Origin: Rhodothermaceae bacterium
GTDB lineage: Bacteria > Bacteroidota > Rhodothermia > Rhodothermales > Bin80
Direction of reading: 5' to 3'
Assembly: GCA_009841335.1 (NCBI GenBank)
Contig: VXLY01000111.1
Span: 1,737 to 65,736 of the forward strand
DNA length: 64,000 bases
Both the position numbers and the translations under genes were made by a program. Under the pieces are notes generated by a model that was not told the DNA's origin, did not search any database, and saw only the letters and a list, made by a program, of their open reading frames with translations. Each line of letters begins with the position of its first letter. Position 1 is the first letter of the stretch. This document shows positions 46-41,483 of this stretch, piece after piece.

Positions 46-2661
46 ATGTCCACTCACAGCCATAGAACCTCAGATGTATTCTCCGTTCTATTCCTTTCGA
101 GCCGATCCCTTAAGGGGGTGCTCTCATGCAGATTGTCACATTTTTGTTCTCTGGTAGCGTTTCTGTCTCTGCTTCTACCCGGTCTGGTTCTCGCACAGGT
201 GTCAGAGCATGCGTCGTCCAAGGAAGTGGAATTCGAGAAGGAACGGGGATGGGAGGAGAATATAACTTCAACCAGGGCGGCTCCTTATCAGGATGACAGG
301 ATCCGGGAGGAGCGTTTCCGGCTAGAGTCCGAAGCATTCGGGCTCGTTCATGACAGATTGTGGTCAGAAATGCCTGTGGACAGAATTTCATTGGTGAAAC
401 CGGTCGCACATATGAGCATGAATATTTGTGATCGGACGGCGGTGGTCATGGATGCGATCATAAGTCGAATCTCCGCTACAAATGACTGTTCCGAAGTTAC
501 GAGTACTCAATTGGCGGCCATCACGGATACCCTGGATTTATCCTGGGAAAACATCTCAAGCCTGAAGGCAGGAGATTTTGATGGTCTGGTCTCGCTGACT
601 GGGCTTGATTTGAGAGCTAACGATTTGTCTACGCTCCCCGCCGGCCTCTTTGGTGAACTGACCTCGCTGGCGGGGCTTGTTTTACTGGGCAACAATCTGT
701 CCACACTCCCCGACGGCATCTTTGATGAACTGTCCTCGCTGACTTGGCTTTCGTTGTCCAGCAACGATTTGTTCACGCTCCCTGCCGACCTCTTTGATGA
801 ACTGACCTCGCTGACTGTGCTCTCGTTGTCCAGTAACGATTTGTCTACGCTCCCTGCCGGTATCTTTGATGAATTGACCTCGCTGACTGGGCTCTGGTTG
901 TCCCGCAACGATTTGTCCATGCTCCCCGCCGGCCTCTTTGATGAACTGACCTCACTGACTTGGCTTTGGTTGAGTAACAACGAATTGTCCACGCTCCCCG
1001 TCGGCCTCTTTGATGAAATGAGCTCGCTGGATCTGCTTGACTTGGGTAGCAATCGTCTGTCCACACTACCCGATGGCGTCTTTGATGAATTGGCCTTGTT
1101 GACTGAGCTCGAGTTGTGGCAAAATGATTTGTCCACACTCTCCGCTGGCATCTTTGATAAACTGACCTCACTGACTTGGCTTGGTCTACTGAGCAACGAT
1201 TTGTCCACGCTCCCCGCCGGCCTATTTGATGAACTGACTTCGCTGAGAAGGCTCAATTTGAGGCGAAACGACTTGTCTACGCTCCCCGCTGGCCTCTTTG
1301 ATAAACTGACCTCGCTGACTTGGCTTGATTTGGGGCAAAACGATTTGTCTACGCTTCCAGACGGCCTCTTTGATGAAGTGACCTCGCTGACTTCGCTTAG
1401 TTTAGGGGACAATGATTTGTCCACGCTTCCCGACGGCATTTTTGATAAACTGACTTCGCTGACTGGGCTATTTTTGTACACTAACAATTTGTCCACACTC
1501 CCCACCGGTGTTTTTGATGAACTGACCTCGCTGACTCGGCTTTGGCTGCAGGCCAACGATTTGTCCACGCTGCCCGACGGCCTATTTGATGAACTTACCT
1601 TGCTGACTGAGCTTGGTTTAGAGGACAACGATTTATCCACGCTCCCCGCCGGTCTCTTTGACGAATTGACATCGTTGACTTGGCTTTCGTTGAACAGCAA
1701 CGATTTGTTCACGCTCCCCGCCGGTCTTTTTGATGAACTGACCTCGCTGACTCGGCTTTGGTTGGACGCCAATGATTTGTCCATGCTGCCCGCCGGCCTG
1801 TTTGATGAACTGACGTCGCTGACTTTGCTTGGTTTATCGGACAACGATTTTTCCACGCTGCCCGACGGCCTCTTTGATGAACTGACCGCGCTGACTGAAC
1901 TTAGTTTATCGAATAACGATTTGTCCACTCTCCCCGACGGCCTCTTTGATGAACTTATCGAATTACCCCTGAAAGCTTTCCCATCCTCAATAGGCTTATC
2001 TCTGGAAGCTAACCCCGGTGCCCCGTTCAGTCCGGTAGTCAACGCGGGTGCAGATATGACGGTACAGCCGGGGGCTGCGGTTTCGATTCCAGGCAGTGTC
2101 ACAGGGCCGTGGGGGGATTTTGTTCGGTGGGACTGGATTCAGGTAGACGGCCCTGATTCAGATGTAGCAGTCACGGGGGCGTTGCCCTTGACGGGCGGCG
2201 ACACGGCGATGCCTAGCTTTACGGCGCCCACGGCGGAAGGAGAACTGTACTTTAAGTTGGTAGTGGCTCCCGCGCGTCAGGGACAGCCCACTGAGTACTA
2301 CGGACATGCGTACTCAGCCCCCGATTGGGTTACGGTTACGGTTACGGGTACGCCTACCAACACATCGATGACGCCTTCAGTGGTCGACTTCAATCTGCTT
2401 GGAAATTATCCCAACCCCTTCAATCCGTCCACGACCATTCTACTGGATTTGCCGCAAGTGGCGGTCGTAATTGTCGATCTCTTCAATGTGCTTGGCCAGC
2501 AGGTCCATCGGGAGGAGTTTCCGGCAGTGGCGGCCGGTGCTTCAAAGCCACTGACCCTGGATGTGTCCCACCTGTCCTCCGGGGCATACATCTATCAGGT
2601 CACGGCGCGAATGGGGAAGGACATTCATCGTGCTGGTGGACGCATGACGCTCATCAAATAG
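46..2661 (+). CDS. Secreted leucine-rich-repeat (LRR) protein with Ig-like spacer and T9SS C-terminal sorting domain
   Basis: 871-aa ORF. Signal-like hydrophobic segment LVAFLSLLLPGLVLAQ; an in-frame GTG at 118 would give a more conventional signal peptide. About 20 consecutive 24-aa units LFDELTSLTxLxLxxNDLSTLPxG. The C-terminus (NYPNPFNPSTTI...GAYIYQV...) fits the type-A T9SS CTD pattern. Confidence 0.85.
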   Translation: MSTHSHRTSDVFSVLFLSSRSLKGVLSCRLSHFCSLVAFLSLLLPGLVLAQVSEHASSKEVEFEKERGWEENITSTRAAPYQDDRIREERFRLESEAFGLVHDRLWSEMPVDRISLVKPVAHMSMNICDRTAVVMDAIISRISATNDCSEVTSTQLAAITDTLDLSWENISSLKAGDFDGLVSLTGLDLRANDLSTLPAGLFGELTSLAGLVLLGNNLSTLPDGIFDELSSLTWLSLSSNDLFTLPADLFDELTSLTVLSLSSNDLSTLPAGIFDELTSLTGLWLSRNDLSMLPAGLFDELTSLTWLWLSNNELSTLPVGLFDEMSSLDLLDLGSNRLSTLPDGVFDELALLTELELWQNDLSTLSAGIFDKLTSLTWLGLLSNDLSTLPAGLFDELTSLRRLNLRRNDLSTLPAGLFDKLTSLTWLDLGQNDLSTLPDGLFDEVTSLTSLSLGDNDLSTLPDGIFDKLTSLTGLFLYTNNLSTLPTGVFDELTSLTRLWLQANDLSTLPDGLFDELTLLTELGLEDNDLSTLPAGLFDELTSLTWLSLNSNDLFTLPAGLFDELTSLTRLWLDANDLSMLPAGLFDELTSLTLLGLSDNDFSTLPDGLFDELTALTELSLSNNDLSTLPDGLFDELIELPLKAFPSSIGLSLEANPGAPFSPVVNAGADMTVQPGAAVSIPGSVTGPWGDFVRWDWIQVDGPDSDVAVTGALPLTGGDTAMPSFTAPTAEGELYFKLVVAPARQGQPTEYYGHAYSAPDWVTVTVTGTPTNTSMTPSVVDFNLLGNYPNPFNPSTTILLDLPQVAVVIVDLFNVLGQQVHREEFPAVAAGASKPLTLDVSHLSSGAYIYQVTARMGKDIHRAGGRMTLIK
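560..1965 (+). repeat. Tandem array of about 20 x 72-bp LRR-coding units (boundaries approximate)
   Basis: Strings such as ctctttgatgaactgacctcgctgact and aacgatttgtccacgctccccgccggc recur at 72-nt period, with stretches of 25 nt or more identical between units. Confidence 0.9.
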
Positions 2662-6815: not shown

Positions 6816-6835
6816 GACCAGGATTCTTTGAAACA

Positions 6836-6851
6836 TCCGAAGTTTTTCGGA
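6836..6851 (+). terminator. Weak hairpin after the MBL gene (possible terminator)
   Basis: TCCGAA-gttt-TTCGGA, a perfect 6-bp stem, lies 21 nt after the stop. There is no U-tract, so support is weak. Confidence 0.25.
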
Positions 6852-6954
6852 GTAGACGCGATTCACTTTTCCCAGCGAAAATTCCCATTGCCCAAAGTTA
6901 CCAAGTGTATACGCAGGAACACCTTAGGCTGTAACTGCTCAATAACTTATTAGC

Positions 6955-9900
6955 GTGCAATCTTGGCAATTATCTGGACCAGTGAACCGGGTAAGGATTT
7001 TCGGAACGTTGTATTTGTCAGTACTGGCTGCTATTTGTGCACCGGCTGCTGCGCAAGATGCTACCCTTGAGCTCATAGATTCTACGCTTGGCCGCAGTGT
7101 CTATCAACTGAGTGCAGAATGGGGAGATGCTGAAGTGGATGTAGGTGGGCTCCTGGAGTCCTCGGTGGTCTTGGATCTTCCAGCCCTGGTACAGCCCAGT
7201 GTTCGCGTTTTGGAAGCAGAGTACGATGAGTACTCATTTGAGCCAGTCAAGGGCGTCGGTGAAGAGGCTGCCGTTGTCGTTGGTCTTGGACTATCGCGAA
7301 AGCGGCCGGCTGCCACATTAGTGGCACGTCTTGTAACCTATGATTCAACATCTGCAAAACTGCGGCGCTACAGGCACATGCGAATTGAGGTGATACATCC
7401 GGTTTATCAGCAGGTGCCCACCAGCTACGAGACCTCGGATAACCCACACCTCGATGTTAGTCGAAGTGTGCTCGCGGATGGGCAGTTTTTTAAGCTTGCA
7501 GTTTCAGAGACAGGGGTATATCGGATTGATCGCACTTTTCTTGAATCTTTACCAGGGCTGGATACGCCAGTTGGCAGTATAGATCCAGATCAAGTCAGGA
7601 TATTTGGTAATGGAGGGGCACCGGTCCCCGCCCTTAACAGTGCGCCCAGGATTGCGGATTTAGCAGAAAATCAGGTATTTGTGCAGGGGGGTGGGGACGG
7701 TAGTTTTGATGCCGCTGATGCGGTCTGGTTCTATGCCCAGGGTCCGAGTGGATGGCAAAGTAGGCAGCTAACAGGCTTCAGGGGCAGACCAATTCTAGAT
7801 CCGAGCGGAGAACCCGTACGCGAGTGGTCCCATTATGTGCATCCGTTTGATTCAACGAACTATTACTTTTTGAGCATTGGGAGTTCGACAAGCGAAACCT
7901 ATCTGCAGGAAGATTATCCTGATGCCGCAGACACAGTTCTGCTCTCCGAAATCACGGGACGCTACTTTGTAGATCTGGACGAGTACTTGTGGGGGCGGGA
8001 AGGGGGCCATTCCGGTCATACCTGGGTCAGTGCGCTTATACCTGGACCTGGGCCGGGACGTACGGTATTCGAAAACTTTCAGCTTCCCGGGCTGACCGGA
8101 GGTACATTGCATTATCAAATCCGAGCAGCTATTCAAAGCAATCCTGCCGCGACCCTGCATTACAGAGGGGATAACAGCACGTTGCACAGTGTTAACTACG
8201 GAGCCAGTTCGGGACTTTCTACATCTATAATTGCACGGTCGGGGATTGCGGATTTCACGCAAACGGTTACCGCTGGTCAGCAGATCAGCCTCACAGTTGA
8301 TCTGGATGACCAAGCCGGTGGCCCCCTGGCGGCTTTGGATTGGGTTCGGATATTTTATCCCAAAACACTCCAGGCAGATCAGCAACCCGTGAGATTTCAT
8401 ACACCATTAGCTGAAGCAGGGACGTTCACATTTGTGCTTCGCGGCTTTTCTTCCCCGCCATTTGTACTGGATATAACCCAACCTGGGGATTATCGCTGGC
8501 TGGGTCTTAGTTCGCGGGGGGGCGAGTATTGGGCACAGGTGACGGCCGCGTCAGCGGATGAGCCCCGGGAGTTGATCGCCTTCACGTCTAATCAAGTTCG
8601 GACTCTGGATGCCACCGAAGCATGTGGTCCTGAATGCAGGGTTACTCCGCAGAACCTCCATGGCATTCAGGCGTGGCCCGACTTTGTGATTATCACTCCC
8701 AATCAGTTTATTCAGCAGTCAAATGCGTTGGCCGATCGTCGTCGTGCAGAAGGACTAACGGTTGAAGTGGTTGATGTACAACAGATTTATAATGAGTTTT
8801 CGGGGGGACTGCAGGATGTGCGTGGCATCAGGGATTACCTGAAGTTTCTTTATGACCGCAGCCCAGATGAAGAACGCCTGTTGCGGTATGTGCTTCTTTT
8901 TGGTGACGGCCACTTTGACTACCGAAATCTTGATGCTTCCGCCACGTTCCCGAATCATATTCCTCCATTCGAGACAGAGGATTCCTGGGACCCCGAACGG
9001 TCCTACACATCAGACGATTACTACGGGCTGCTCGATGATAATGAAGGGTTATGGCCTTATATCCAGAAAACTTTCCAGGACCCATATGCCCACTTGAACG
9101 AGCGCGTAGATTTAGGGATTGGGCGCTTTACGGTACATACCGAAGAAGAAGCTCAATTGATGATTGATAAAATTGTGCACTATGAAAGCCCGAACACATA
9201 TGGTCAATGGCGAAACCGATACCTGTTTCTGGCAGATGATGGTCCAACGGGAATATCTGGCACACAAAATGACAAGGACCTTCATACACAAAATACCGAT
9301 GTGGTTGCAGTTGCAGTGGCGAAGCTTGCGCCAGATGTAAACCAGCGTAAAGTGTATGCACTTTCGTACACCAGAGAATTCCTCAACACCTGGCGCGTTC
9401 CGAAAGCGCGCCAAGATCTGCTATTAGCGATTGATGAGGGCGTTCTCGTTGTGAACTATAGTGGTCATGGAGGCGAGCGGTCGCTTGCGCAGGAAAATCT
9501 TTTTACTGTTGAGGACTCCAGATCCCTCCAGAATTATGATAGACTGCCGATATTCATTACCGCAACCTGTTCCTTCGGTCGATGGGATTTGGGAAATGAG
9601 CAGACCGGTGCAGAAGAGTTGCTTCTAAATCGAAATGGTGGGGCGATTGCCCTCCTGACAACGGTACGTCAAGTATACACTTCCGGGACTGCGACCACAC
9701 TTAATGTTGGACTGAATGTGGCCCTGAACGAAGAGCTCTTTAAACGGGAAGCCGATCAGTTGTTACCTCGGATTGGAGATGCGCTTCGTCGAACCAAGAA
9801 CAGACGTGTGGGCTACGAGGGTAACAACCGCAAATTCAATCTTCTGGGAGATCCTACATTGCGGCCTGGCTTACCCGCCAGTCGTGCCGTTGTTACGCAT

Positions 9901-10974
9901 ATAAACGACAATCAGATTTCCACGGCCACAGGGCAGATGCGTGCACTGGAACGGATTGAGCTGAAGGGGGAAATCCAACGGTCTGACGGTTCATTAGATA
10001 CTTCCTTTGATGGTGCGGCGTCGCTCACGGTTTTTGATGCGCTGAGGCACGTGCCAATTCCTCCAGAGATGTTTCGCCATATGCCGCAGCGTTACTATGA
10101 AGTTCGAGAAGATCTGATCTGGCGGGGCAGGACTCGCGTGACCGATGGACGCTTTGTGGCACGATTTGTCGTTCCAAAGGATATCTCGTATGCAAATCGG
10201 CCCGGAAGGGTTACCCTCTACGCACAAAGTGCGGCTGAGCATGTAAATGGGCATTCTGAGCGCTTTATTGTCGGCGGCACCTCGGACGATGCCACAAATG
10301 ATGTGGACGGCCCACAGATCGAACTTTATCTGGGAGATGAATCGTTCACCAGTGGCGGCTTGGCTCCCGTGCAACCGCAAGTATTCGCCCGCATATATGA
10401 TGAAAGCGGCATCAATACAGTGGGTGCAGGAGTTGGACACGAAATGTTACTCGTACTCGACGAAAATGAGGTGGAAGCAATCAACATTGGCAACCTCTAT
10501 GAAAGTGATGAGGATTCATTTCAACGGGGATCTGTTTCTTATTCTTTTGACGAGGCGCTGACGCCCGGTCCACACACACTTAGTCTTCGTGCTTGGGATG
10601 TGCTGAACAATTCCGGCGAAGCATCCTTAGATTTTCTTGTAACGGATACCGAAGAGTTAGTGATCAGAAATGTTTTCAACTATCCAAACCCTACGACCGG
10701 GGCAACCCGATTCGTTTTTGAGCACAACCAAATACCCGGTACGCCAGTTAAGGTACATGTGCGGGTTTATACTTTAGCGGGACGTCCCGTGCGGACTTTG
10801 GAATCAGAAGAGTTGTTATCTGCAGGACCAATGCAAATTTCCTGGGATGGACTGGACGACGATTATGCAAGACTCGCCCCTGGCGTGTACTTGTATAGGC
10901 TTCGGGCTGAAACAGCAGGTGACGAAGTGCAGCACGTTGCCGAGATTATAGAAAAACTGGCCGTTGTTCGTTAA
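6955..10974 (+). CDS. porU: T9SS sortase PorU (C25 gingipain-like peptidase family)
   Basis: 1339 aa with a GTG start and signal peptide. Gingipain-type catalytic dyad contexts VNYSGHGG (His codon 9466..9468) and FITATCSFG (Cys codon 9568..9570). C-terminal T9SS CTD (FNYPNPTTG...GVYLYRLRAE). Immediately upstream of porV, as in known T9SS loci. Confidence 0.88.
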   Translation: MQSWQLSGPVNRVRIFGTLYLSVLAAICAPAAAQDATLELIDSTLGRSVYQLSAEWGDAEVDVGGLLESSVVLDLPALVQPSVRVLEAEYDEYSFEPVKGVGEEAAVVVGLGLSRKRPAATLVARLVTYDSTSAKLRRYRHMRIEVIHPVYQQVPTSYETSDNPHLDVSRSVLADGQFFKLAVSETGVYRIDRTFLESLPGLDTPVGSIDPDQVRIFGNGGAPVPALNSAPRIADLAENQVFVQGGGDGSFDAADAVWFYAQGPSGWQSRQLTGFRGRPILDPSGEPVREWSHYVHPFDSTNYYFLSIGSSTSETYLQEDYPDAADTVLLSEITGRYFVDLDEYLWGREGGHSGHTWVSALIPGPGPGRTVFENFQLPGLTGGTLHYQIRAAIQSNPAATLHYRGDNSTLHSVNYGASSGLSTSIIARSGIADFTQTVTAGQQISLTVDLDDQAGGPLAALDWVRIFYPKTLQADQQPVRFHTPLAEAGTFTFVLRGFSSPPFVLDITQPGDYRWLGLSSRGGEYWAQVTAASADEPRELIAFTSNQVRTLDATEACGPECRVTPQNLHGIQAWPDFVIITPNQFIQQSNALADRRRAEGLTVEVVDVQQIYNEFSGGLQDVRGIRDYLKFLYDRSPDEERLLRYVLLFGDGHFDYRNLDASATFPNHIPPFETEDSWDPERSYTSDDYYGLLDDNEGLWPYIQKTFQDPYAHLNERVDLGIGRFTVHTEEEAQLMIDKIVHYESPNTYGQWRNRYLFLADDGPTGISGTQNDKDLHTQNTDVVAVAVAKLAPDVNQRKVYALSYTREFLNTWRVPKARQDLLLAIDEGVLVVNYSGHGGERSLAQENLFTVEDSRSLQNYDRLPIFITATCSFGRWDLGNEQTGAEELLLNRNGGAIALLTTVRQVYTSGTATTLNVGLNVALNEELFKREADQLLPRIGDALRRTKNRRVGYEGNNRKFNLLGDPTLRPGLPASRAVVTHINDNQISTATGQMRALERIELKGEIQRSDGSLDTSFDGAASLTVFDALRHVPIPPEMFRHMPQRYYEVREDLIWRGRTRVTDGRFVARFVVPKDISYANRPGRVTLYAQSAAEHVNGHSERFIVGGTSDDATNDVDGPQIELYLGDESFTSGGLAPVQPQVFARIYDESGINTVGAGVGHEMLLVLDENEVEAINIGNLYESDEDSFQRGSVSYSFDEALTPGPHTLSLRAWDVLNNSGEASLDFLVTDTEELVIRNVFNYPNPTTGATRFVFEHNQIPGTPVKVHVRVYTLAGRPVRTLESEELLSAGPMQISWDGLDDDYARLAPGVYLYRLRAETAGDEVQHVAEIIEKLAVVR

Positions 10975-11020
10975 AGGCCACAAACATGTGTACAACCTAA
11001 CCCTTGCAAAACCAGATAGT

Positions 11021-12208
11021 ATGAAGAGTCAGATTTTCAAACACATCACCATTTCGTCGCTTTTGATCTTCATGATCATTGGTGGCATTGTCAGGGATGC
11101 ATCGGCCCAGATTGGCGCATCCGCTGTTGTATTTCTCATGATTGAACCCGACAGCAGGGCGGCAGGTATGGGGAATGCAGGTGTAGCCATTGCCGACAAT
11201 GCAAATGCCTTGTTTTGGAATCCTGCAGGGTTAGCCGATCAGGTTGGAACTGAGGTTGCACTGACGCACAGTAATTGGTTGCCAGAGCTGAGCAGTGATC
11301 TATTTTTTGAGTACCTGGTCGCCAAGCATCATATCAATAATTGGGGCACAATCGGGGCGCATGTAACATTTTTGAACCTTGGTGAGCATGAACACCGTGA
11401 TGCACTGAATCAAGAACTAGGTACTTTTCGATCATACGACCTGTCTGTCGGAGTCTCGTATGGGTTCAAGGTTTCTGAGCATTTTTCACTGGGTACCGGT
11501 GTGCGTTGGATCCGGTCTAACCTTGCCAGTGTCAATGTAGGTGCGCAGCAGTCTCAGCCGGGTGTATCGGTCGGTGTGGACTTGGCAGCTATGCTCAAGG
11601 CGCCCCAATTTTCACTTGGGCCTATTGCCACGCAGTACAATATTGGGGTTAATCTCACCAACATGGGTCCCAAGATCCAGTACTCTGACAGTGAGCAGGC
11701 TGACCCGATCCCCACCTTACTTCGTGTAGGTCATGCAATTACATTTGAATTTGACGAATACAACAAGATCACTCTGGCCAACGATGCTTCAAAAATTCTC
11801 GTGCGTCAGCGGGTTGAGGAGGTATGTATTGACGTTAATGATCCTGAGACCTGTGCTCCGCAATACTCCACAGATCCGTTCTATCGCGCGATCTTCACTT
11901 CCTGGACCCCCATTGAAGTTCTGAGTTCAGCGGTCAACGATGATGAACAGGAGTTCACGAACCTGTCAGTCATTGACCAGCTCTTGATTTCCGTTGGTTT
12001 CGAGTACTGGTACAATAATCTGTTCGCAGCGCGTGGAGGATATTTCTATGAGAATCCCTACAATGGTGACCGGAAATTCCTAACCTTTGGAGCAGGAATC
12101 CGCTACAATATCGTGGGGGTTGATTTTTCGTATGTATATGCCTTGGAGGAAAACCATCCTTTGGCCAATACAATGCGTTTTTCGCTACTCCTCAACTTTG
12201 CACGCTAA
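11021..12208 (+). CDS. porV: T9SS outer-membrane shuttle protein PorV (PorV/PorQ family)
   Basis: The ORF opens at 10964. The ATG at 11021 gives a signal peptide. N-terminal signature DSRAAGMGNAGVAIADNANALFWNPAGLA. Size is that of a beta-barrel protein (about 395 aa). Adjacent to porU. Confidence 0.88.
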   Translation: MKSQIFKHITISSLLIFMIIGGIVRDASAQIGASAVVFLMIEPDSRAAGMGNAGVAIADNANALFWNPAGLADQVGTEVALTHSNWLPELSSDLFFEYLVAKHHINNWGTIGAHVTFLNLGEHEHRDALNQELGTFRSYDLSVGVSYGFKVSEHFSLGTGVRWIRSNLASVNVGAQQSQPGVSVGVDLAAMLKAPQFSLGPIATQYNIGVNLTNMGPKIQYSDSEQADPIPTLLRVGHAITFEFDEYNKITLANDASKILVRQRVEEVCIDVNDPETCAPQYSTDPFYRAIFTSWTPIEVLSSAVNDDEQEFTNLSVIDQLLISVGFEYWYNNLFAARGGYFYENPYNGDRKFLTFGAGIRYNIVGVDFSYVYALEENHPLANTMRFSLLLNFAR

Positions 12209-12230
12209 CCCGGATCGAGGTTGCAGTACA

Positions 12231-15125
12231 ATGAGGCAGCTGACTGTCACGGCAGCGGCCTGCCTATTGCTGCTGACCGGAGCAAATGCTCAAACGGTTA
12301 AGCCAGCTGCACCATACTACGACTTGGTCGCGCTCCGGGTAGAGTTTGTGCCGGATACGTCCAGTTTTACTACTGGTGACGGAACGTTCTCGGGATTGAG
12401 ACTTCCCGTTGAACCAAAGGTCGATCCGCTCCCTCATGATGCGGCCTATTTCGAGGCCCATCTGGCTTTTCTGGAACACTATATCCTCACAGCCAGTGCT
12501 GGCAGAACCAGGATTGTGACGCATCTCATCCCTGAGGTTGTGCGGCTGGATAGTCCAATGGCAACCTATAGTCCGGTCGGATTAGACTCAGACAGTAAGT
12601 CGGAGCGATCGAAATTGGCAAACCTGGTCCGTGATGCCTGGACAAAGGCAGATGTGGAGAGTACATTTGATCCAATGCGATTCTCGAACAAGGGGAATAT
12701 TGTGTTCGTCCTGTTCCATGCGGGGGTAGGACGTGATATTGAGCTGGTCGGCACGACGCTGGACAAGACACCCCAGGACCTCCCTTCACTCTTCATGGGG
12801 ACCAATACGTTGGCAGACCTTGGTATTAGCGGACTCAAATTCAAAGGGTTGCCGGTAGACCATTCGCTTATCATTCCCCGCACGGAAACCCGCCCGGGCG
12901 TAAATCCCTTTACGGATGAGCCCTACCTGCTGGAACTGTCAATTAATGGATTGTTGGCAGCAAGCTTCATTAGTTATCTAGGGGTTCCCGACCTGTTCAA
13001 TACCGATACCGGGGAGTCAGTGATTGGTCCGTTTGGTGTGATGGATCCATTGGGTATTTTTGCGTATCGCGGACTGTTTCCACCACTACCCAGTGCCTGG
13101 ACCCGCGCAGCACTCGGGTGGGCGATCCCGGAAGACATTCATGATCCCGGTACATACGATCTGGCAGCCGGAGAAATTGCCAGGATAGAGATATCAGAGG
13201 CTGAGTATTTTCTGTTGGAAAACCGTGTACGCACTCCCGACGATACAGGGCTCACGCTACACATATTCAACGAGGGGAAAATCTCAACTCAGCGGTTCCC
13301 TGCGACCAGCGATGATTTTGACCGATTCAATGTGGGGGCATTTCAGGGTGGTGTGGTTACACGGGCAAGCTCATACGATTTTGCGCTGCCAGGCCGTGAT
13401 GCCGATAATCAGCAATACAATGGAGGGATCCTCATCTGGCACATTGATGAGCGTCAGTTTTCCCGCGCGGTCAACAATGATCCAGACGCGTTGGCTGTTG
13501 ATATTGAGGAAGCCGACGGGGCACAGGATATTGGCTTTGACGGTAACATCGGCTCTCCGTTTGATTTTTATTTCAGCGACAATCCTTCAAGTGTAGCCTT
13601 GCCCTCCGGGCTCACCATCAGTCTCTATGATAATCGGTTTGGCCCCGACACGACACCAGACAGCAGGACAAACGAAGGCGGGAACAGCTTCTTAACGTTC
13701 GACAATTTTTCGGCGTCCGGCCCGAACATGTCTTTTTCGGTCCAGAAGGATGCGGGCGAACATGTGACCGATGCAGGAATGGTTGAACTGGGATCAGAAA
13801 CTACTCAAGAAGGCAGCGTTGGGATAGCAGCCGGTCGAAGAGTAGTGTTTACCGGTACGGAGCTCATTGTACCAGGGGCTGACCGGGTGAATGCTCTGGC
13901 ACGGCCGGCCTACAGTGCACAGGGCATGGCCGTGGTCGACGATCAGGATGGCGGCATTGCATTCAGAGAATATGAATTAATCGGGGAGCAACTGATGGCA
14001 AGACGGTCGGTAACTCTTCCCGCAGAACTCCCGATGGCAGGACCAGTGGTGTATCATGACAATGCTCATTATGCCCACTTCACCGGACCAGACCGATCAC
14101 AAGTGTTTCGGATAGCTTCTGGTGTAGATAGATATGATATTGATGACGGCGGGCTGGGGGTGATTGCGACTGATGAAGGAGTTTACTTCGTTGGACAGTC
14201 ACAAGCCGGGCTGATTGGCGAAGCTTCAACATGGACGTACACGCTGGACAGTGATGCAGGCTACCCGGTAATGGGACGGGATCGTACCGGGCTATGGGGA
14301 GCAATTCCGCTTTCCACGGCCCTAGTTGTACTGGAACCCGATGGTGAAACCAGACGGATTTCGGCCTCAGCCTACGTCGGAGGCGCAGTTTTTTCATCAT
14401 TGCTCGCTATTGCAGATCTAGATCAGAACGGTGTTCTTGATTTGATTACAACTGCAGGTAATAGGGTCGTTGCATTCTCTCAGGGAGGTGCATTGCTTCC
14501 ACCTTTTCCCATAGAGATCGGAGCTCCTGCCACCAGCGCTCCACTGATCTATCAATCGGACGATGCGATCATCATTGTTGTATCTGCCGCTGATGGGAAT
14601 ATTTATGCATTCGACCTCGACCAGAAGGGGCGAGTCATTCCCGGGTTCCCCTTATCGGCTGGGCGTGCAATCAAAGCTACTTCACTCATTTTGAGTGATA
14701 CACTGAGCGTAGTTACCGAATCAGGTATTCTGAGAAACTACAAGCTGAATAATATCGGTCGGGCGCTCTGGGCACAGCAGCACGGTACCGGACAAAATGC
14801 GAGCTTTGTGGCATTGCCTACAAAACAAGCTGAGACTGCGCCGCTGTTGAACGCAGCGGAGACTTATAATTGGCCTAATCCAATCCGGGATGGGCACACG
14901 TTTTTTCGGTGTCTGACAAGTGAAGCTTCGCAAATATCCGTCACGGTGGTGGACGCGGCGGGGTCTTTGGTGGGCTCGTTAGATTTTGCCACTTCGGCAG
15001 GCGTCCCACATGAAGTTCCCTGGAAAACCAGTGCCGCGAGCGGCATATACTTCGCGCGGGTAGAAGCCACCTCTGTTTCTGGACGGACGGACTCACATCT
15101 GATTAAACTCGCGATCATTCGATGA
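12231..15125 (+). CDS. T9SS cargo: M6 (immune inhibitor A)-like domain with degenerate zinc site, beta-propeller-like region and T9SS CTD
   Basis: The ATG at 12231 gives the signal peptide MRQLTVTAAACLLLLTGANAQ. LAASFISYLGVPDLF aligns with the M6 motif HEFGHDLGLPDLY. GGILIWHIDE is present. FG-GAP/BamB-like repeats occur (DLDQNGVLDLITT, GNIYAFDLDQKGRVIPGFP). The C-terminus YNWPNPIRDG...GIYFARVEA is a T9SS CTD. Confidence 0.75.
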   Translation: MRQLTVTAAACLLLLTGANAQTVKPAAPYYDLVALRVEFVPDTSSFTTGDGTFSGLRLPVEPKVDPLPHDAAYFEAHLAFLEHYILTASAGRTRIVTHLIPEVVRLDSPMATYSPVGLDSDSKSERSKLANLVRDAWTKADVESTFDPMRFSNKGNIVFVLFHAGVGRDIELVGTTLDKTPQDLPSLFMGTNTLADLGISGLKFKGLPVDHSLIIPRTETRPGVNPFTDEPYLLELSINGLLAASFISYLGVPDLFNTDTGESVIGPFGVMDPLGIFAYRGLFPPLPSAWTRAALGWAIPEDIHDPGTYDLAAGEIARIEISEAEYFLLENRVRTPDDTGLTLHIFNEGKISTQRFPATSDDFDRFNVGAFQGGVVTRASSYDFALPGRDADNQQYNGGILIWHIDERQFSRAVNNDPDALAVDIEEADGAQDIGFDGNIGSPFDFYFSDNPSSVALPSGLTISLYDNRFGPDTTPDSRTNEGGNSFLTFDNFSASGPNMSFSVQKDAGEHVTDAGMVELGSETTQEGSVGIAAGRRVVFTGTELIVPGADRVNALARPAYSAQGMAVVDDQDGGIAFREYELIGEQLMARRSVTLPAELPMAGPVVYHDNAHYAHFTGPDRSQVFRIASGVDRYDIDDGGLGVIATDEGVYFVGQSQAGLIGEASTWTYTLDSDAGYPVMGRDRTGLWGAIPLSTALVVLEPDGETRRISASAYVGGAVFSSLLAIADLDQNGVLDLITTAGNRVVAFSQGGALLPPFPIEIGAPATSAPLIYQSDDAIIIVVSAADGNIYAFDLDQKGRVIPGFPLSAGRAIKATSLILSDTLSVVTESGILRNYKLNNIGRALWAQQHGTGQNASFVALPTKQAETAPLLNAAETYNWPNPIRDGHTFFRCLTSEASQISVTVVDAAGSLVGSLDFATSAGVPHEVPWKTSAASGIYFARVEATSVSGRTDSHLIKLAIIR

Positions 15126-18100
15126 AGCGAGTCCTCTCTGTTCTTGCTGCGGTGATGTTGGTTGCCGGTACAAATGCTCAGGTTTCTCCGTCTCTTCTAG
15201 ATTTTAGCCGCCCAGCGCTTGATTGGTACCAAATAGAGACGGATCACTTTGTCATACTGTTCCACATGGATGAATCGGGGCAGGGAGCAAGTCGGTCGGC
15301 TCAGGTGGCAGCGCGCGTAGCCGAAGAAGTCTACGGACCCATAACAAGCCTGTATGAGCATGAACCAGACGGCAAGGTGCATATAATCCTCAAAGACTAC
15401 GAGGATTACTCAAACGGCGCAGCGTACTTTTTTGACAATAAGATTGAGATCTGGGCACCCGCGCTAAATTCTCCCTTGCGAGGGGCACATGACTGGATGC
15501 GCAATGTGATCACACACGAGTTCATCCATATCGTTCAGGTTCAGGCAGCAATGAAGTCTCCGCGAAGATGGCCCTTGGGGTATCTCCAGGTTCTGGATTA
15601 CGAAGATGTACGCCGTCCCGATGTCTTGTATGGATATCCCAATGTGATTGTCAGTTATCCGGTTATTGGTTTGAACAACCCGGCTTGGTTTGCGGAAGGG
15701 ACTGCACAGTATCAACATGATCACTTACACTACGACCGTTGGGATTCGCATAGGGACATGTTGCTGCGAACCCGTGTTCTGGAGGGAAAGGCGCTCAGTC
15801 TGACTGAGCTTGGCAGCTTCTATTCCAAGAGCAGTTTGATGCGTGAGGGGGTGTATAATCATGGGTTCGCATTCACGCTGTATTTGGCACGTGTGTATGG
15901 AGTGGAGGTGTTGGCCCAGATTAGTGACTACCTGCGCAGTTGGCGTATATGGCGCGTTGAGGAAGCCATTGAGCAAGCAACCGGTGTACCGGGGCAGGAA
16001 GTTTATGAGTCGTGGCTTCAGGAACTCAATCGCTCCTATGTACAGGCCGTATCTCCCATTAAGGAGTCTCTCGCGGAAGGAACATTGGTTGAGCCAGAAG
16101 GCTTCGCCAATTATTTCCCGCGGTTCTCACCGGATGGATTGAAGTTGGCCTATATATCCAATAAGGGTGAACATTTTGGTCGCACCAGCCTGTACGTACA
16201 AGACTTAAGCAGCGGTTCGGTGGTTGCCCACGATCTGGGAGAGGCCTTCGGCGACTACATCTGTTCACTAGGTCATCGTATAAAGTCCAATGTGACCGGC
16301 GCTGCTGCCTGGCGCCCGGATGGTCAGGCACTCGCATATGCCCGGCAGCGTGTAACCTCAGAGGGTTTTCTATACACAGATCTTCATTTGATTGATTTAG
16401 ATACGGAAAAATCCTCTCCACTGACGCGTGATGCACGTGCCTCCCAACCTGCGTGGGATTCCACAGGGACAAGAATTATGTACGTCACCTCCGATGATGG
16501 AAGCAGTAATCTGCAATTGCTGAACCTAGAAACAGGCGAGGGCAGACCAATCACGCGGTTTGCAAACGGAACCCAGGTAACCTCTCCGGTATGGCACGGT
16601 GAATGGATTTATTTTGCGCGACTCGATCCCGGTGCTCATGGTAACGATTTGTGGCGGGTCAAGGCAGACGGATCAGAACTGGCCCCCGTTCTGCAGACTT
16701 CGGCGGATGAGCGATCACCGGCGATAGCCAATGGCATGCTGTACTATGCTTCTGATGAGAGTGGGATCTACAATATCTATCGGTTTAAGCCGGACGGTTC
16801 GGAGCAACTGACTCAGGTCATCGGCGGAGCTTTCATGCCGGATGTCAGTGAAGATGGGAGGATCGCTTATGCCACATATAGATGGGATGGATACAAAATC
16901 GCCATTCTAGAGTATCCAGCAACAATTGAATCCACAATCCAATATGCGCCACCGGAATTCATCACAAAAACTGCCGCGCCTACTGCGTCGGAGAATGACG
17001 GGGATATAAGGGCTATTGATCCAGAAGTGCTTTCAAGTACATTGGACAGGGAACCAGCTTTGGGGACGGATTCTTTACAGGTATCGCGCTATGGTGCCAA
17101 CTTTACAAGTTTCAGCTTCTCACCGGTTGTCCGACTGGATCAATACGTAGAGCGTCGGCTCGAGGGGCGTGTTCGTGGCAGGGCAGAAACCTTTTGGAGG
17201 AACCTGAAATTCGGCACTTACGTCTCTTCCCGGGAGATGCTGGAGGGCATGAGCCTGTTCGGAGGATTGCTCGTAGGTCCAGGATCACACCAGGACGGCC
17301 AAATTATTGCTCCGGCCAATATACTGGCACTTGAACGGGATGTATTTCTTCAATTCAATTACTCCCGGGGTTTTGGGTTCTTGCCTGGACGTTGGTCGCC
17401 GCAGATAGCAATCGAGCTGTATAATATTCAGCGTCAGGTAGAGAACGGGCTGTCTATTGATGAGCACCCTTGTACTGCATGCTTACCTGAGTCCACCAAT
17501 GCCGACCTTACTTATGGTCTCTGGGAGGGAAATATATATTTGCGCAGCAAGATTAACCGCAGCACAGTACTTGAAGCTGGATACCGGTACAGCCCGTATC
17601 GTGTTACAACAAACCGTTTCTATTCAAAAGAGCTTACAGATTGGATACCCAGTACCTCGTCACGCTACTTTATTGGCCGCAGCTATATGGCGGGCGCCTA
17701 CTTTGAGGCACGGCGTTCTCATCGTGAGTCGGACATAATGCGCACAGGCTTGAGCATTGCGGCTACGTATGAACGCGAAACCGGTGAATTGCTGAGGCAA
17801 TTTGATGTGGAAGAAGGGCAATTGGTACCTGTCTATGATACCGACGTACTCCACCGGATGCGCGTTAATTTAGAGGGAGGAATCCGGCTACCTGGCCAAG
17901 TTCGTGGCACTTCACATGGCCTGAGTATTCGGGTGCAAGCCTCAACGCTATTCGGCAAGAATACAGATTCGTTTTATTTTGACTATGTCGGTGGCCTGTC
18001 CGGCGCACGCGGCTATCCGTTTTATGCACTGGGTGGGACAGAAACACTATGGGTGCAGGCTGCATGGACCTTGCCATTGATTCCTGATATTCGGCGTCAG

Positions 18101-18382
18101 ATCGGACCGGTTTATTTGGATAAGGTCTTCATGCGCCTTTATGCTGATGGGGCAAGGGTCCAACCGGCAAGCCAGGCGATCCGCAAAGATATGGGGGCTG
18201 AACTTCGCCTGATGATGGGAAGCTACTATTTACTACCAACGGCATTGTTTGTCAGTGCGACTTATGGCATGGATGCATTTGAGGTTGAGCTGGATGATGT
18301 GTTCGTTACTTCGCAGCCGAGCGTAGATTATGGTAAGGAGCTTCAATGGCACTTTGGGTTACTTTTTGGGTTTGACCTGTAG
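15122..18382 (+). CDS. Zincin (Peptidase_MA-like HExxH) / PD40 TolB-like propeller / Omp85-like beta-barrel fusion protein
   Basis: The start overlaps the upstream stop (ATGA). Signal peptide MKRVLSVLAAVMLVAGTNAQ. HEFIH at 15515..15529 followed by FAEGTAQY. PD40-like repeats (FSPDGLKLAYISN, WRPDGQALAYAR, DSTGTRIMYVTSDDGSSNLQLLNLETGE). C-terminal VGGLSGARGYPFYALGGTE...LYADGARV...WHFGLLFGFDL resembles the Omp85 loop-6 RGF/Y region and terminal strands. Confidence 0.75.
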   Translation: MKRVLSVLAAVMLVAGTNAQVSPSLLDFSRPALDWYQIETDHFVILFHMDESGQGASRSAQVAARVAEEVYGPITSLYEHEPDGKVHIILKDYEDYSNGAAYFFDNKIEIWAPALNSPLRGAHDWMRNVITHEFIHIVQVQAAMKSPRRWPLGYLQVLDYEDVRRPDVLYGYPNVIVSYPVIGLNNPAWFAEGTAQYQHDHLHYDRWDSHRDMLLRTRVLEGKALSLTELGSFYSKSSLMREGVYNHGFAFTLYLARVYGVEVLAQISDYLRSWRIWRVEEAIEQATGVPGQEVYESWLQELNRSYVQAVSPIKESLAEGTLVEPEGFANYFPRFSPDGLKLAYISNKGEHFGRTSLYVQDLSSGSVVAHDLGEAFGDYICSLGHRIKSNVTGAAAWRPDGQALAYARQRVTSEGFLYTDLHLIDLDTEKSSPLTRDARASQPAWDSTGTRIMYVTSDDGSSNLQLLNLETGEGRPITRFANGTQVTSPVWHGEWIYFARLDPGAHGNDLWRVKADGSELAPVLQTSADERSPAIANGMLYYASDESGIYNIYRFKPDGSEQLTQVIGGAFMPDVSEDGRIAYATYRWDGYKIAILEYPATIESTIQYAPPEFITKTAAPTASENDGDIRAIDPEVLSSTLDREPALGTDSLQVSRYGANFTSFSFSPVVRLDQYVERRLEGRVRGRAETFWRNLKFGTYVSSREMLEGMSLFGGLLVGPGSHQDGQIIAPANILALERDVFLQFNYSRGFGFLPGRWSPQIAIELYNIQRQVENGLSIDEHPCTACLPESTNADLTYGLWEGNIYLRSKINRSTVLEAGYRYSPYRVTTNRFYSKELTDWIPSTSSRYFIGRSYMAGAYFEARRSHRESDIMRTGLSIAATYERETGELLRQFDVEEGQLVPVYDTDVLHRMRVNLEGGIRLPGQVRGTSHGLSIRVQASTLFGKNTDSFYFDYVGGLSGARGYPFYALGGTETLWVQAAWTLPLIPDIRRQIGPVYLDKVFMRLYADGARVQPASQAIRKDMGAELRLMMGSYYLLPTALFVSATYGMDAFEVELDDVFVTSQPSVDYGKELQWHFGLLFGFDL

Positions 18383-18400
18383 CGATATCCTTGGATTTCC

Positions 18401-19039
18401 ATGACGCCTGTTGTGATCTTTTGCTTACTCTTTATTGCAATCAGTATTGGATTGCTTTATCTGGTCCTGCGAAAGAACCCATACCCGGTTCCGCGCGGAG
18501 GTATACAGTGGATGGTCACCATCATGTGTACGTTGCTCGTTTGCCTTTCTGGATTCGTGATTGCGCTTGAATGGAGTTTTTCCGAGCATTCTGATATCAC
18601 CTCCACCCCAGAGCAGGTAGAGCCCTTTGTATTTCGATTGGTTTCCAATCAGGAAGCGGTGAACATAAGCGATTTTAATGGGAGTGTGGTGCTCTTGAAT
18701 TTCTGGGCCACGTGGTGTCAGCCCTGCATTACTGAACTACCCGAGCTTGATGCACTGCAGGAAGCTTATGGGGATATAGGCCTGGTTGTTGTAACTCTGT
18801 CAGACGAAGACTTGGAAGAGCTGCAGTTATATGATGATTTGCTGCCCGAAAAAACGGTATCTGGTTATGTAGCTCCTGAGGAATTGCCGGAATATTTCAG
18901 ACACGAACTTCAATCCGGTCGGCCGATCACGTATGTGATTGATGGGAGAGGAATGATTCGGGAACGCCTTCTGGGAGCGGGGACATTTGAATATTTCGAG
19001 GGTCTTGTCACACCGTGGCTGGCTGAACTCCAATCGTAG
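18401..19039 (+). CDS. TlpA-family membrane-anchored thiol:disulfide oxidoreductase
   Basis: Two N-terminal TM segments. Thioredoxin-fold motif NFWATWCQPC. Confidence 0.85.
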   Translation: MTPVVIFCLLFIAISIGLLYLVLRKNPYPVPRGGIQWMVTIMCTLLVCLSGFVIALEWSFSEHSDITSTPEQVEPFVFRLVSNQEAVNISDFNGSVVLLNFWATWCQPCITELPELDALQEAYGDIGLVVVTLSDEDLEELQLYDDLLPEKTVSGYVAPEELPEYFRHELQSGRPITYVIDGRGMIRERLLGAGTFEYFEGLVTPWLAELQS

Positions 19040-19042
19040 CGC

Positions 19043-19993
19043 ATGCGGTGTACTGCACTCGTCCTTGGCCTTCTCGTCTTCATTCCGAATGTTCAGGCGC
19101 AGCCTACTGCCGATAGCCTGGAAGCATTGTTTTCAAGCTCCCGTCGCAGCACTCCACTTGCCTTTGGCATGTCTGCGGTGGTTCCTGGTCTAGGCCAAGC
19201 TTATAATCGTCATTGGATCAAGGGGGCAGTTGCGGTAGCAGGAGAGGCCGCGGTGCTCTTGCTATATACTTCTTGGCGCCGACAGGGTGTGGATGGACGG
19301 GACGCCTATCAAATGGATGCTCACATGTACTGGAGTCCGATTAAGTATGCATACTGGCTTAATGATTATGCTCAGTACTTGAACCGACTGCCGGATGGGC
19401 GTCCAGTAACGGCTCCGCCGGTGAATATTTCACAGGCGCTTTTGAGCATTGACCTGACACAGCCAGACGCGTGGTCAGATTCGGAACGGCTGGCGGTGCG
19501 AAAACTTTTCCAGGAGATTCAATTGCTTGAACGTGACAGCTATCACGGAGATACAGGAGCAGTTTTTTCGCACGTTCTTCCATTTTTTGGAGAACAGCAG
19601 TACTATGAACTTGTGGGCAAGTACTTTCAGTTCGCTCCGGGTTGGGAAGATTACGTTGCTATTGTCAGAGATGGCCGTGTAACCTGGATTGACGAGAATG
19701 GAGATTTTATTCAATCTATTGAGCCGGAAGCGACCGGCCCGGGCGGGACAAAACCAAATGTATCCGCCAGGTTCTATCAATACGCAGAGGATCATGCTGA
19801 CGCAAATACATACTTGCGTCGAGCTTCCCGAATTACGACTCTGCTCATTGTAAATCACGTACTCGCTGCTGTGGATGCGGCAATATTTGCGCGGCTGCAC
19901 AACCGTCGTATGCAACTTAGTCTTGGGCTGGTGAAAGATATTCAGGGACGAACTCTCGTGGCTCCGCAAGTGAGATTCCACCTGAATAAATGA
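19043..19993 (+). CDS. DUF5683-like secreted/membrane protein
   Basis: Signal peptide MRCTALVLGLLVFIPNVQAQ. VVPGLGQAYNRHWIKGA resembles the DUF5683 signature recalled from Bacteroidota proteins. Confidence 0.6.
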   Translation: MRCTALVLGLLVFIPNVQAQPTADSLEALFSSSRRSTPLAFGMSAVVPGLGQAYNRHWIKGAVAVAGEAAVLLLYTSWRRQGVDGRDAYQMDAHMYWSPIKYAYWLNDYAQYLNRLPDGRPVTAPPVNISQALLSIDLTQPDAWSDSERLAVRKLFQEIQLLERDSYHGDTGAVFSHVLPFFGEQQYYELVGKYFQFAPGWEDYVAIVRDGRVTWIDENGDFIQSIEPEATGPGGTKPNVSARFYQYAEDHADANTYLRRASRITTLLIVNHVLAAVDAAIFARLHNRRMQLSLGLVKDIQGRTLVAPQVRFHLNK

Positions 19994-39840: not shown

Positions 39841-39865
39841 TAATCAAGGCATTGAGAATACGAAG

Positions 39866-40435
39866 ATGATGGCAGACACACTTGTACTGACACCACAGCA
39901 GATTATCCGCAAAAAGGCTGCGGGTGAGCCCATTCAGCCTGACGATAGTGAAATGACGCGAAAGCATACGATCGTGGTTCTCGTAGAGAATTCCATCGGT
40001 GCATTCATACGTGTTATCAATATGTTCTCAGCACGGGGATTCAACATTGACAGTGTTACAGTCGGTCCCACAGAGGATTCAAGTGTTAGCCGGATGAACA
40101 TAGCGACAGTTGGAAACAGCCGTATAATTGCCCAGGTTTTGAGGCAGTTGAGTCGTCTGGTGGACACAATTGAAGTTACCGATCTCACGACAACTGATTA
40201 TGTAGAGCGGGAGTTGTGTCTGCTTAAAGTGTGCTATACGAAGGATTCCCGCTCAGAAATCCTGGATGTAAGTGATATTTTTCGGGGCAAGGTTGTTGAC
40301 ATCACTAAAAAAACAATGACCTTTGAGTTGCGCGGTCCTTCTCAAAAGATTGATGCGTTTATCGACATGATGTTACCACACAATATAGTCGAGGTCGCTC
40401 GAAGTGGTCGCGTAGCTATGCAGCGCGACATATAA
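39866..40435 (+). CDS. ilvN: Acetolactate synthase, small (regulatory) subunit
   Basis: ACT domain HTIVVLVENSIGAFIRVINMFSARGFNIDSVTVGPTED. Directly downstream of ilvB. Confidence 0.92.
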   Translation: MMADTLVLTPQQIIRKKAAGEPIQPDDSEMTRKHTIVVLVENSIGAFIRVINMFSARGFNIDSVTVGPTEDSSVSRMNIATVGNSRIIAQVLRQLSRLVDTIEVTDLTTTDYVERELCLLKVCYTKDSRSEILDVSDIFRGKVVDITKKTMTFELRGPSQKIDAFIDMMLPHNIVEVARSGRVAMQRDI

Positions 40436-40466
40436 TCTGCAATCAACCACATTTATTTGGTAATAC

Positions 40467-41483
40467 ATGAAAGTGCACTACAACGCCGATCCCAGCATTA
40501 TCCTTGGGAGAAAGGTAGCGGTGATCGGATATGGAAGCCAGGGACATGCCCACGCCCTGAATTTACAGGACAGCGGGGCGACTGTCAGAGTTGGTCTACG
40601 AGGCGGGTCGAGATCTGCCGGCAAAGCCCGTGCCAAGGGGCTTGGAGTGATGAGCATCGCAGATGCTGCTGCCTGGGGAGATGTAATCATGATTCTGATC
40701 CCGGATCAGGATCAAAAGCGGGTTTACGAAGCAGAGATTGCCGATTGCATGATACCAGGCAAGGCTTTGGGCTTTGGCCACGGGTTTAATGTGCACTACG
40801 ACCAGATCAAGGCACCGGAAGGCGTGGATGTCTTTATGGTAGCTCCCAAAGGCCCAGGACATCTTGTTCGCCGTACTTTCGAAGAAGGCAAAGGCACCCC
40901 TTGCCTTGTGGCAGTGGCACAGGACGCTACCCGCACAGCCCTTGATCTCGCGATCAGCTACGCTGATGCAATTGGGGGTACACGCGCAGGCGTGATCGAA
41001 ACCAACTTCAAGGACGAAACGGAAACCGACCTCTTTGGAGAGCAGGCAGTCTTGTGTGGAGGATCACAGGCCTTAATTCAGGCAGGATTTGAAACATTGG
41101 TTGAAGCGGGATACCCTGAGGAACTGGCTTACTTTGAGGTGCTCCATGAGCTGAAACTCATTGTAGATCTCTACTATGAGGGGGGGCTTTCGTATATGAA
41201 CTACTCCATCAGTGATACGGCGGAGTATGGTAACTATTCTCGTGGACAGCGTGTTATTGGTCCTCAGGTGAAGGAGGAAATGAGGCGTATCCTTGACGAA
41301 ATTCAATCCGGTGACTTTGCACGTGAATGGATTGCCGAATGCGAAGGAGGGCAGTCAGCATTTCAGGCTTATCGAGATAGAACTGCAGCACACCCGGTAG
41401 AAAAAGTAGGCAAGCGACTGCGTAAGATGATGGCTTGGCTTAGAAAGAGTACCGATACAGTAGAAACTGCCAAGGCAGCTTAA
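40467..41483 (+). CDS. ilvC: Ketol-acid reductoisomerase (class I)
   Basis: 338 aa. [13 protein letters not shown] Rossmann motif. ISDTAEYG. Confidence 0.95.

Follow-up and report, generated by a model that had tools for sequence, protein, structure and literature searches.

The outer-membrane end of the T9SS (type IX secretion system) is known almost wholly from Porphyromonas and Flavobacterium, and its attachment complex consists of PorU, PorV, PorQ and PorZ. In Porphyromonas gingivalis and Flavobacterium johnsoniae, the conserved gene unit is not known to extend beyond porU-porV, as the first-pass annotation of the DNA studied here pointed out. For Cytophaga hutchinsonii, another Bacteroidia model, the published locus (CHU_3237-3238) agrees with that picture (PMC8564354). 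Here, we describe a 64,000-nt stretch of contig VXLY01000111.1 from a Rhodothermaceae bacterium (assembly GCA_009841335.1; hereafter the window), in which porU and porV have the same adjacency and order as in these three species and both encoded proteins score above the NCBIfam equivalog cut-offs. Unlike the porU-porV loci of these species, the window carries four further genes 3' of porV, and the core of this arrangement occurs without porU outside the Rhodothermales and Ignavibacteria. The block, which lies on the + strand together with all motifs and domains located below, comprises porU (6955-10974; T9SS C-terminal-signal peptidase/sortase, 1339 aa), porV (11021-12208; T9SS outer-membrane shuttle barrel, 395 aa counted from the ATG at 11021), a gene for a T9SS-dependent M6-like inactivated metalloprotease (M6i; 12231-15125, 964 aa), a gene for a 1086-aa protein with a signal peptide, a gluzincin domain, a TolB-like beta-propeller and an Omp85-type barrel (gene 4; 15122-18382), a gene for a membrane-anchored TlpA/ResA-like thioredoxin-fold protein (trx; 18401-19039, 212 aa), and a gene for a DUF5683-like membrane protein (19043-19993, 316 aa). 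Judged by gene neighbourhoods, the conserved unit is the four-gene cassette porV-M6i-gene 4-DUF5683, not porU-porV plus extras.

Conservation of the gene cassette across lineages

Seeding a genome scan with gene 4 gave a Rhodothermales set of 80 species, made up of Rhodothermales or Bacteroidota metagenome-assembled genomes (MAGs) and Roseithermus sacchariphilus, with gene 4 identities of 45-97%; the counts for this set cover the loci long enough to judge. The order porU-porV-M6i-gene 4-trx-DUF5683 was near-invariant and on one strand throughout these 80 genomes. Gene 4 was immediately preceded by M6i in 63/63 loci, with porV upstream of both in 61/61 and porU upstream of porV in 58/58, while trx was present in 67 of 75 loci and DUF5683 followed downstream of gene 4 in 66 of 70. 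The shortest spacings separated M6i from gene 4 (median 14 nt) and gene 4 from trx (median 23 nt), and the cultivable R. sacchariphilus (locus L023) possessed all cassette genes.

An exhaustive search of representative sequences with gene 4 returned 409 clusters at E<=1e-30, and a metagenome scan that took distant family members as seeds yielded a further 80 loci in which gene 4 was ~36-40% identical and whose neighbours were scored with hidden Markov models built from the Rhodothermales genes. At these distances, M6i was still directly upstream of gene 4 (47/47 loci), porV upstream of the two (45/45) and DUF5683 downstream (71/71), whereas porU was adjacent in only 5 of 33 loci, trx was found in none of the 80, and the genes flanking the block in the window (the lactonase-like MBL gene, the dicarboxylate symporter gene SDF and the CPBP protease gene) were likewise found in none of the 80. 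Among 76 distant loci, 44 had an M6i stop that overlapped the gene 4 start (by 4 nt or by 1 nt), as is also the case in most close Rhodothermales loci, and the estimated start sites were identical to those of database proteins in all ten cases compared. Most of the marine loci checked belonged to Candidatus Marinimicrobia/Neomarinimicrobiota; other lineages with the cassette were KSB1/Zhuqueibacterota and Ignavibacteria, and for some loci the nearest labelled relative was a Calditrichaeota MAG protein at ~50% identity. NCBIfam confirmed the PorV-family and M6i identities in the distant loci. Because the core order persists over phylum-level distances while all flanking genes change, the four genes are best read as the unit, and porU and trx are, on the same comparison, lineage-specific additions, the former in Rhodothermales and Ignavibacteria and the latter in Rhodothermales alone. 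Such retention beside porV across phyla, amid changing surroundings, makes a strong guilt-by-association case for these uncharacterised outer-membrane genes as candidate T9SS parts that have so far been missing.

These results recast the proposal of the first-pass annotation. Its stipulation that the neighbourhood be conserved in related genomes was borne out in Rhodothermales, Ignavibacteria, KSB1 and Marinimicrobia, but its description of the locus as porU-porV extended by accessory genes needs correction, given how rarely porU adjoined the cassette in the distant loci. Of the two partners that it had attached to the secretion genes, the Omp85-like protein was linked to M6i and porV in every distant locus scored for them (47/47 and 45/45), and the oxidoreductase, a Rhodothermales-only insertion absent from all 80 distant loci, was rejected as a general cassette partner. 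A 148-aa AhpC/TSA-type redoxin without an anchor was encoded immediately 5' of porU in one non-Rhodothermales locus (L167, 995-1441), perhaps by coincidence.

The porU gene preceded the cassette only in Rhodothermales and in Ignavibacteria-like loci. In two of the latter (L161, 13771-22748; L166, 14075-23129), the cassette and porU were followed by lptF/lptG on the opposite strand and then by sprA, and the proximity of this translocon gene points to further clustering of T9SS genes in the Ignavibacteria-like lineage. One Ignavibacteriae MAG locus also contained an extra 217-aa open reading frame (ORF) between M6i and gene 4 (L161, 8997-9650), with weak FlgD_ig and CarboxypepD_reg-like matches.

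In the window, the six genes lie co-directionally as the first-pass annotation had placed them, with gaps, read directly from the sequence in the order porU to DUF5683, of 46, 22, -4, 18 and 3 nt; the negative value reflects an ATGA (15122-15125, +) shared by the stop codon of M6i and the start codon of gene 4. Gaps of 139 nt (upstream) and 104 nt (downstream) flank the block. The same annotation had seen no hairpin terminators between the genes, and our scan also placed none in any gap (13 terminator-like sites in the region against 16.2 expected, no enrichment), nor did the gap RNAs fold better than shuffled sequence. One strand, short or overlapping junctions and no intrinsic terminator between genes are the sequence features of an operon, and all were observed across the six genes. 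Such spacing fits an operon but proves none, as it is ordinary in this genome: the + strand holds 33 of the 42 genes of the window, and gaps of <=46 nt occur at 20 of the 29 other same-strand junctions, so that five tight junctions in a row carry a chance probability of ~0.16. An in-window operon example, the ilvB-ilvN-ilvC-leuB-leuA-leuC run (38041-47666, +), displays the same pattern with gaps of <=31 nt. The cluster exceeds chance only because of its conservation across lineages; the six genes form one conserved cluster and probably a single transcription unit.

Architecture of the encoded proteins

The family calls that the first-pass annotation had made for all six genes stood up, with profile matches to NF033707, NF033710, NF052323, PD40, AhpC-TSA/Redoxin and PF18935 and a predicted Omp85 fold for the barrel of gene 4. 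PorU matched NF033707 over its full length with 969 bits (cut-off 420) and Peptidase_C25 (PF01364) with E 1e-102, and PorV scored 304 bits against NF033710 (equivalog cut-off 250) and E 2e-41 against the Pfam PorV model. The PorV copies of the distant cassettes scored 183-251 bits against NF033710, which makes their orthology less certain. We also considered the cassette porV as BamG, another FadL-like barrel and a subunit of BAM, the machinery for beta-barrel assembly (PMC12611786), and rejected this assignment, as the best match was always the PorV family.

M6i reached 696 bits against NF052323 ("T9SS-dependent M6-like inactivated metalloprotease"; equivalog cut-off 600), a model matched by 46 of 46 relatives. 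It shares the M6 domain with peptidase family M6 (immune inhibitor A), but the catalytic HExxH is replaced by an HAGVG at aa 163-167 (12717-12731, +) that is invariant across 46 sequences, including H163, G165 and G167, and no HExxH occurs anywhere in the window protein. At its C-terminus lies a putative type A T9SS sorting domain (aa ~881-964; 14871-15122, +), which in the window scored 19.9 bits against TIGR04183, below the cut-off of 23; the domain was matched by 44 of 46 relatives at E<=1e-3, and the YNWPNP...R motif of this C-terminus is invariant in the 46 sequences. By its motifs, M6i is thus a T9SS cargo-type pseudoprotease with a catalytically dead M6 fold. The NF052323 name already marks the family as T9SS-dependent and covers cargo status only; for the fixed position of M6i between porV and gene 4, our literature search found no description. 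The arrangement recalls the PorZ-PorQ and PorU-PorV pairings (PMC8545088, PMC12365241), in that a non-catalytic propeller protein bearing a C-terminal domain (CTD) is encoded together with a PorV-family barrel. M6i was rejected as PorZ itself, with NF052228 aligning to the CTD only.

The gene 4 product begins with a signal peptide and an N-terminal helical zincin domain; a TolB-like propeller follows, and long beta-strands make up the C-terminal region. The zinc-binding/catalytic motif HEFIH (aa 132-136; 15515-15529, +) is followed by a candidate third zinc ligand, E192 (15695-15697, +), within an AEGTAQ motif. HEFxH and E192 were invariant in the family alignment, HExxH was kept in 100/100 full-length representatives (29-55% identity), and W[FL][AS]EG[VTI]AQ was conserved between phyla. 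An HExxH with a downstream Glu is the pattern of gluzincins (clan MA), and Peptidase_MA_2 gave a weak match to the window protein (E 0.007, under the gathering score). From these residues the protease is probably active, unlike M6i. The propeller (aa ~320-600; 16079-16921, +) was recognized by Pfam PD40 (E 2.5e-11) and by similarity to TolB structures (E 1e-14 by profile, 3e-10 by fold), and it was modelled with a predicted local distance difference test (pLDDT) score of 80-92 within a full-length model whose overall value of 62.7 makes it interpretable for the propeller only. Profile searches of PDB sequences with two gene 4 alignments gave propeller matches only, with nothing for the zincin domain or the barrel and no Omp85.

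Re-modelling residues 600-1086 with a 50-sequence alignment across several phyla raised the pLDDT of the C-terminal domain to 81.5 and predicted a 16-strand barrel of the Omp85 superfamily (aa ~660-1086; 17099-18379, +), ordered as eleven strands, a long loop and five strands. The top 50 Foldseek matches of this model in the PDB were all BamA, TamA, FhaC or CdiB (E 6e-8 to 6e-5; target-normalised TM-score up to 0.62), the BamA matches coming from Deinococcus, Flavobacterium, Bacteroides and E. coli. The long loop past the eleventh strand carries an RGY motif (aa 963-965; ARGY aa 962-965; 18008-18016, +) within a GGLxGxRGYPFY consensus held over 50 sequences from several phyla. The loop 6 motif described for BamA is (V/I)RG(F/Y) (PMC12611786), which the RGY of the modelled barrel matches in both position and sequence, and the PGAP pipeline labelled a C-terminal fragment from a homolog as "BamA/TamA family outer membrane protein". 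Pfam PF01103 did not match the window protein at E<=0.01, and a precomputed match was present in only five homologs. No POTRA match was returned by Pfam or NCBIfam, and aa 600-660, which form a poorly conserved linker of ~60 residues between propeller and barrel, were of low confidence in the model. The Omp85 assignment is based on a modelled structure together with a motif, and, with PF01103 and POTRA undetected, gene 4 is a non-canonical member with the fold and the motif. The barrel and the RGY at loop 6 are what it shares with BamA, TamA, TpsB/FhaC/CdiB and PlpD; what sets it apart is an N-terminus composed of a gluzincin and a TolB-like propeller. The HExxH, the PD40 match and the Foldseek and RGY results uphold the earlier call of a zincin/PD40/Omp85 fusion, and for an intact zinc protease joined to an Omp85 barrel we found no described counterpart.

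PorE (PG1058 of P. gingivalis) is a T9SS-associated lipoprotein with TPR, carboxypeptidase-regulatory and OmpA_C domains, and it resembles gene 4 in having a TolB-like propeller. None of those three domain types was detected in gene 4 by Pfam or NCBIfam, and gene 4 adds the zincin and the Omp85 barrel; its identification as PorE or another named T9SS component was rejected, as it matched none of the NCBIfam T9SS component models.

The trx protein scored above cut-off against AhpC-TSA (47.6 bits, cut-off 26) and Redoxin (39.1 bits), has a WCQPC motif at aa 105-109 (18716-18727, +), and begins with two hydrophobic segments, so that it shares the thioredoxin fold, the WCxxC and the N-terminal anchor of TlpA, ResA and CcmG. 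It did not reach the TlpA (57 bits, cut-off 230) or ResA (59 bits, cut-off 170) equivalogs, and, in contrast to these proteins, it sits in a T9SS/Omp85 rather than a cytochrome-maturation context and occurs in Rhodothermales only. Gene 4 itself carries two cysteine features, Cys381 in a propeller loop insertion specific to Rhodothermales (16262-16264, +) and a C-T-A-C motif on the tip of a long hairpin in the barrel (aa 784-787; 17471-17482, +). C381 together with CT[AS]C was present in 79/79 Rhodothermales sequences and 0/80 others. The trx gene shows the same restriction to Rhodothermales, and this co-occurrence weakly suggests that the trx protein services the cysteines of gene 4 in this lineage. 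The sixth protein matched DUF5683 (PF18935) with 37.9 bits (gathering 26.7) over aa 40-93 only, covering 54 of the 151 profile positions.

The signal peptides of PorU, PorV, M6i, gene 4 and the DUF5683 protein end in Ala and are followed by Gln (AAAQ, ASAQ, ANAQ, TNAQ and VQAQ). Under the Bacteroidetes "Q-rule", an N-terminal Gln is subsequently cyclised by glutaminyl cyclase, and the Ala-Gln ends of these five proteins fit that rule. A glutaminyl cyclase gene lay directly 3' of a Fibrobacterota gene 4 relative in two of three loci (L163, 13065-13841; L164, 13068-13853).

A putative module at the PorV station and its alternatives

The cassette combines one undoubted T9SS component, PorV, with one protein that needs the T9SS for its export, M6i, and gene 4 and DUF5683 are tied to these two because their adjacency and overlap persist across phylum-level distances. 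From this association we infer a T9SS role for gene 4, DUF5683 and the oxidoreductase, and we infer likewise the physical association, topology and substrates of the cassette proteins. With moderate confidence, we favour a co-expressed outer-membrane module at the PorV station, in which PorV would have M6i as its dedicated partner and gene 4 would act as a protease with an Omp85 anchor. PorV would act as the outer-membrane shuttle taking in T9SS cargo, and M6i, a dead M6 fold with an FG-GAP propeller, would be exported through its type A C-terminal domain and stay on PorV as a dedicated surface partner, comparable in Porphyromonas to PorU and PorZ on PorV and PorQ. Gene 4 would use its barrel as the outer-membrane anchor, while its zinc protease, active, gated by the TolB-like propeller and most likely facing the periplasm, would process or quality-control proteins en route through the PorV station. 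The DUF5683 protein may be a small membrane subunit of this module, and in Rhodothermales the periplasmic thioredoxin-fold protein may service the cysteines gained there by gene 4.

Several observations weigh against this module. Every locus was found via gene 4, so that the conservation counts apply to porV genes near a gene 4. In several distant loci, PorV scored 183-190 bits, under the cut-off of 250, and such low-scoring copies could be paralogs. The scans for sigma-70 promoters and terminators showed no enrichment and were uninformative, as was that for the Bacteroidota -7 motif TAnnTTTG (33 sites against 28.6 expected, none in the gaps). In C. hutchinsonii, porU-porV is followed instead by three small genes, of which chu_3239, directly downstream of porV, is annotated as a small "zinc protease" (PMC8564354). 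The link between trx and the cysteines rests on one lineage, eight Rhodothermales loci keep the gene 4 cysteines without an adjacent trx, and BamA topology would turn the CTAC hairpin, which links strands 5 and 6, outward. In the Fibrobacterota, no porV, M6i or DUF5683 adjoined the more distant gene 4 relatives of Chitinispirillaceae, Chitinivibrionales and Fibrobacter. Finally, 48 of the loci L081-L160, all of Marinimicrobia type, have a gene for a BamD/YfiO-like TPR lipoprotein directly 3' of DUF5683 (e.g., L081, 6978-7862), followed by nadD-like, ftsE, ftsX and grpE genes, and this conserved envelope context could be a link to the BAM machinery; together with lptFG in the Ignavibacteria-like loci, such neighbours fit general envelope biogenesis equally well.

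The last two points also lend support to the principal rival, in which the genes would serve outer-membrane biogenesis or proteostasis in general, gene 4 being a BamA/TamA-like protein with a periplasmic protease that assembles or clears outer-membrane proteins, DUF5683 an envelope protein, and T9SS secretion independent of both, with porV adjacent only through clustering and co-regulation of envelope genes. The Omp85 fold and RGY motif of gene 4 are what such a module would have, and its Fibrobacterota relatives are unlinked to porV. Yet the BamD, Lpt and FtsEX neighbours are each restricted to a single lineage, whereas porV and M6i are adjacent in every main-clade lineage; the translational coupling of gene 4 is to M6i and not to BamD, and the POTRA domains of biogenesis proteins were undetected by Pfam and NCBIfam. 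We therefore regard this explanation as a serious but rather unlikely one. Should it prove right, gene 4, with its thousands of homologs, would still represent an Omp85 architecture not described before.

The start/stop overlap of M6i and gene 4, which points to a fixed stoichiometry, is also compatible with a self-contained surface protease pair, in which M6i would be plain T9SS cargo with the role of a substrate-binding pseudoenzyme and gene 4 a type Vd-like autotransporter displaying its zincin and propeller by means of its own Omp85 barrel, so that extracellular proteins would be degraded or processed and porV would be adjacent merely because M6i is a major PorV client. An N-terminal enzyme ahead of an Omp85 barrel resembles the PlpD-type autotransporters, the ~60-residue propeller-barrel linker is poorly conserved, and a same-side disulfide could join Cys381 to the outward-predicted CTAC hairpin. 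Against surface display, however, the periplasm is where TolB-like propellers reside, as do the N-terminal domains of BamA, TamA and TpsB, Pfam and NCBIfam recognized no POTRA domain in gene 4, and neither the universal DUF5683 partner nor the insertion of a periplasmic TlpA-like gene after gene 4 is explained, which leaves the pair improbable in our judgement. Mere inheritance of gene order, with independently transcribed neighbours and no functional coupling, could draw on the tight same-strand spacing that is normal in the window (20/29 junctions) and on a generally high synteny in Rhodothermales, where MBL lies upstream in 24 of 36 loci and SDF directly downstream in 32 of 61; but the four core genes keep their order, often overlapping, at phylum-level distances at which MBL, SDF and CPBP have all vanished (0/80), and we consider this account very improbable indeed.

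Extending the favoured module at the PorV station, the cassette may represent an unrecognised T9SS outer-membrane sub-complex of PorV, M6i, gene 4 and DUF5683 in lineages of the Fibrobacteres-Chlorobi-Bacteroidetes (FCB) group outside Bacteroidia, a broader proposal that we advance as speculative. Equally tentatively, it may be a station, ancestral or alternative, at which cargo is processed and attached, taking the role that PorQ/PorZ have in Porphyromonas, and that of PorU where the cassette lacks porU. The lineages to which this doubtful generalisation would apply are Rhodothermales, Ignavibacteria, KSB1, Marinimicrobia and Calditrichota-like bacteria. Literature searches on the cassette, DUF5683, M6-like T9SS proteins, Omp85-zincin fusions and T9SS in Rhodothermales or Ignavibacteria found nothing relevant, and PMC5562754 does not address operon structure. 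If true, the proposal would add new T9SS parts in groups that dominate their environments, marine SAR406 and Rhodothermales among them, would make gene 4 the first member of the Omp85 family to be connected with type IX secretion, and would give genetics a concrete set of four genes to target in Rhodothermales that can be cultivated.

Flanking genes and other features of the window

The flanks of the six-gene block consist of unrelated housekeeping genes, namely nadA, the lactonase-like MBL gene, the dicarboxylate symporter gene, the CPBP protease gene, cdsA, mutL and tilS. A perfect 6-bp hairpin, TCCGAA-GTTTT-TTCGGA, lies at 6833-6853 (+), 18 nt past the stop of the lactonase-like gene and without a U-tract; judged by its position, it may be a weak terminator parting that gene from porU. 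Approximately 4 kb upstream of porU lies a second T9SS cargo gene of the window (46-2661, +); its 871-aa product has leucine-rich repeats and a T9SS sorting domain of type A (TIGR04183, 31.3 bits, cut-off 23). Farther downstream, a SusC-like TonB-dependent receptor gene (CarboxypepD_reg + Plug) overlaps a downstream ORF of 526 aa by 14 nt (57335-62072, +, for the two together) and adjoins a GH31-like gene (54405-56642), and by its gene content this region looks like a polysaccharide utilisation locus.

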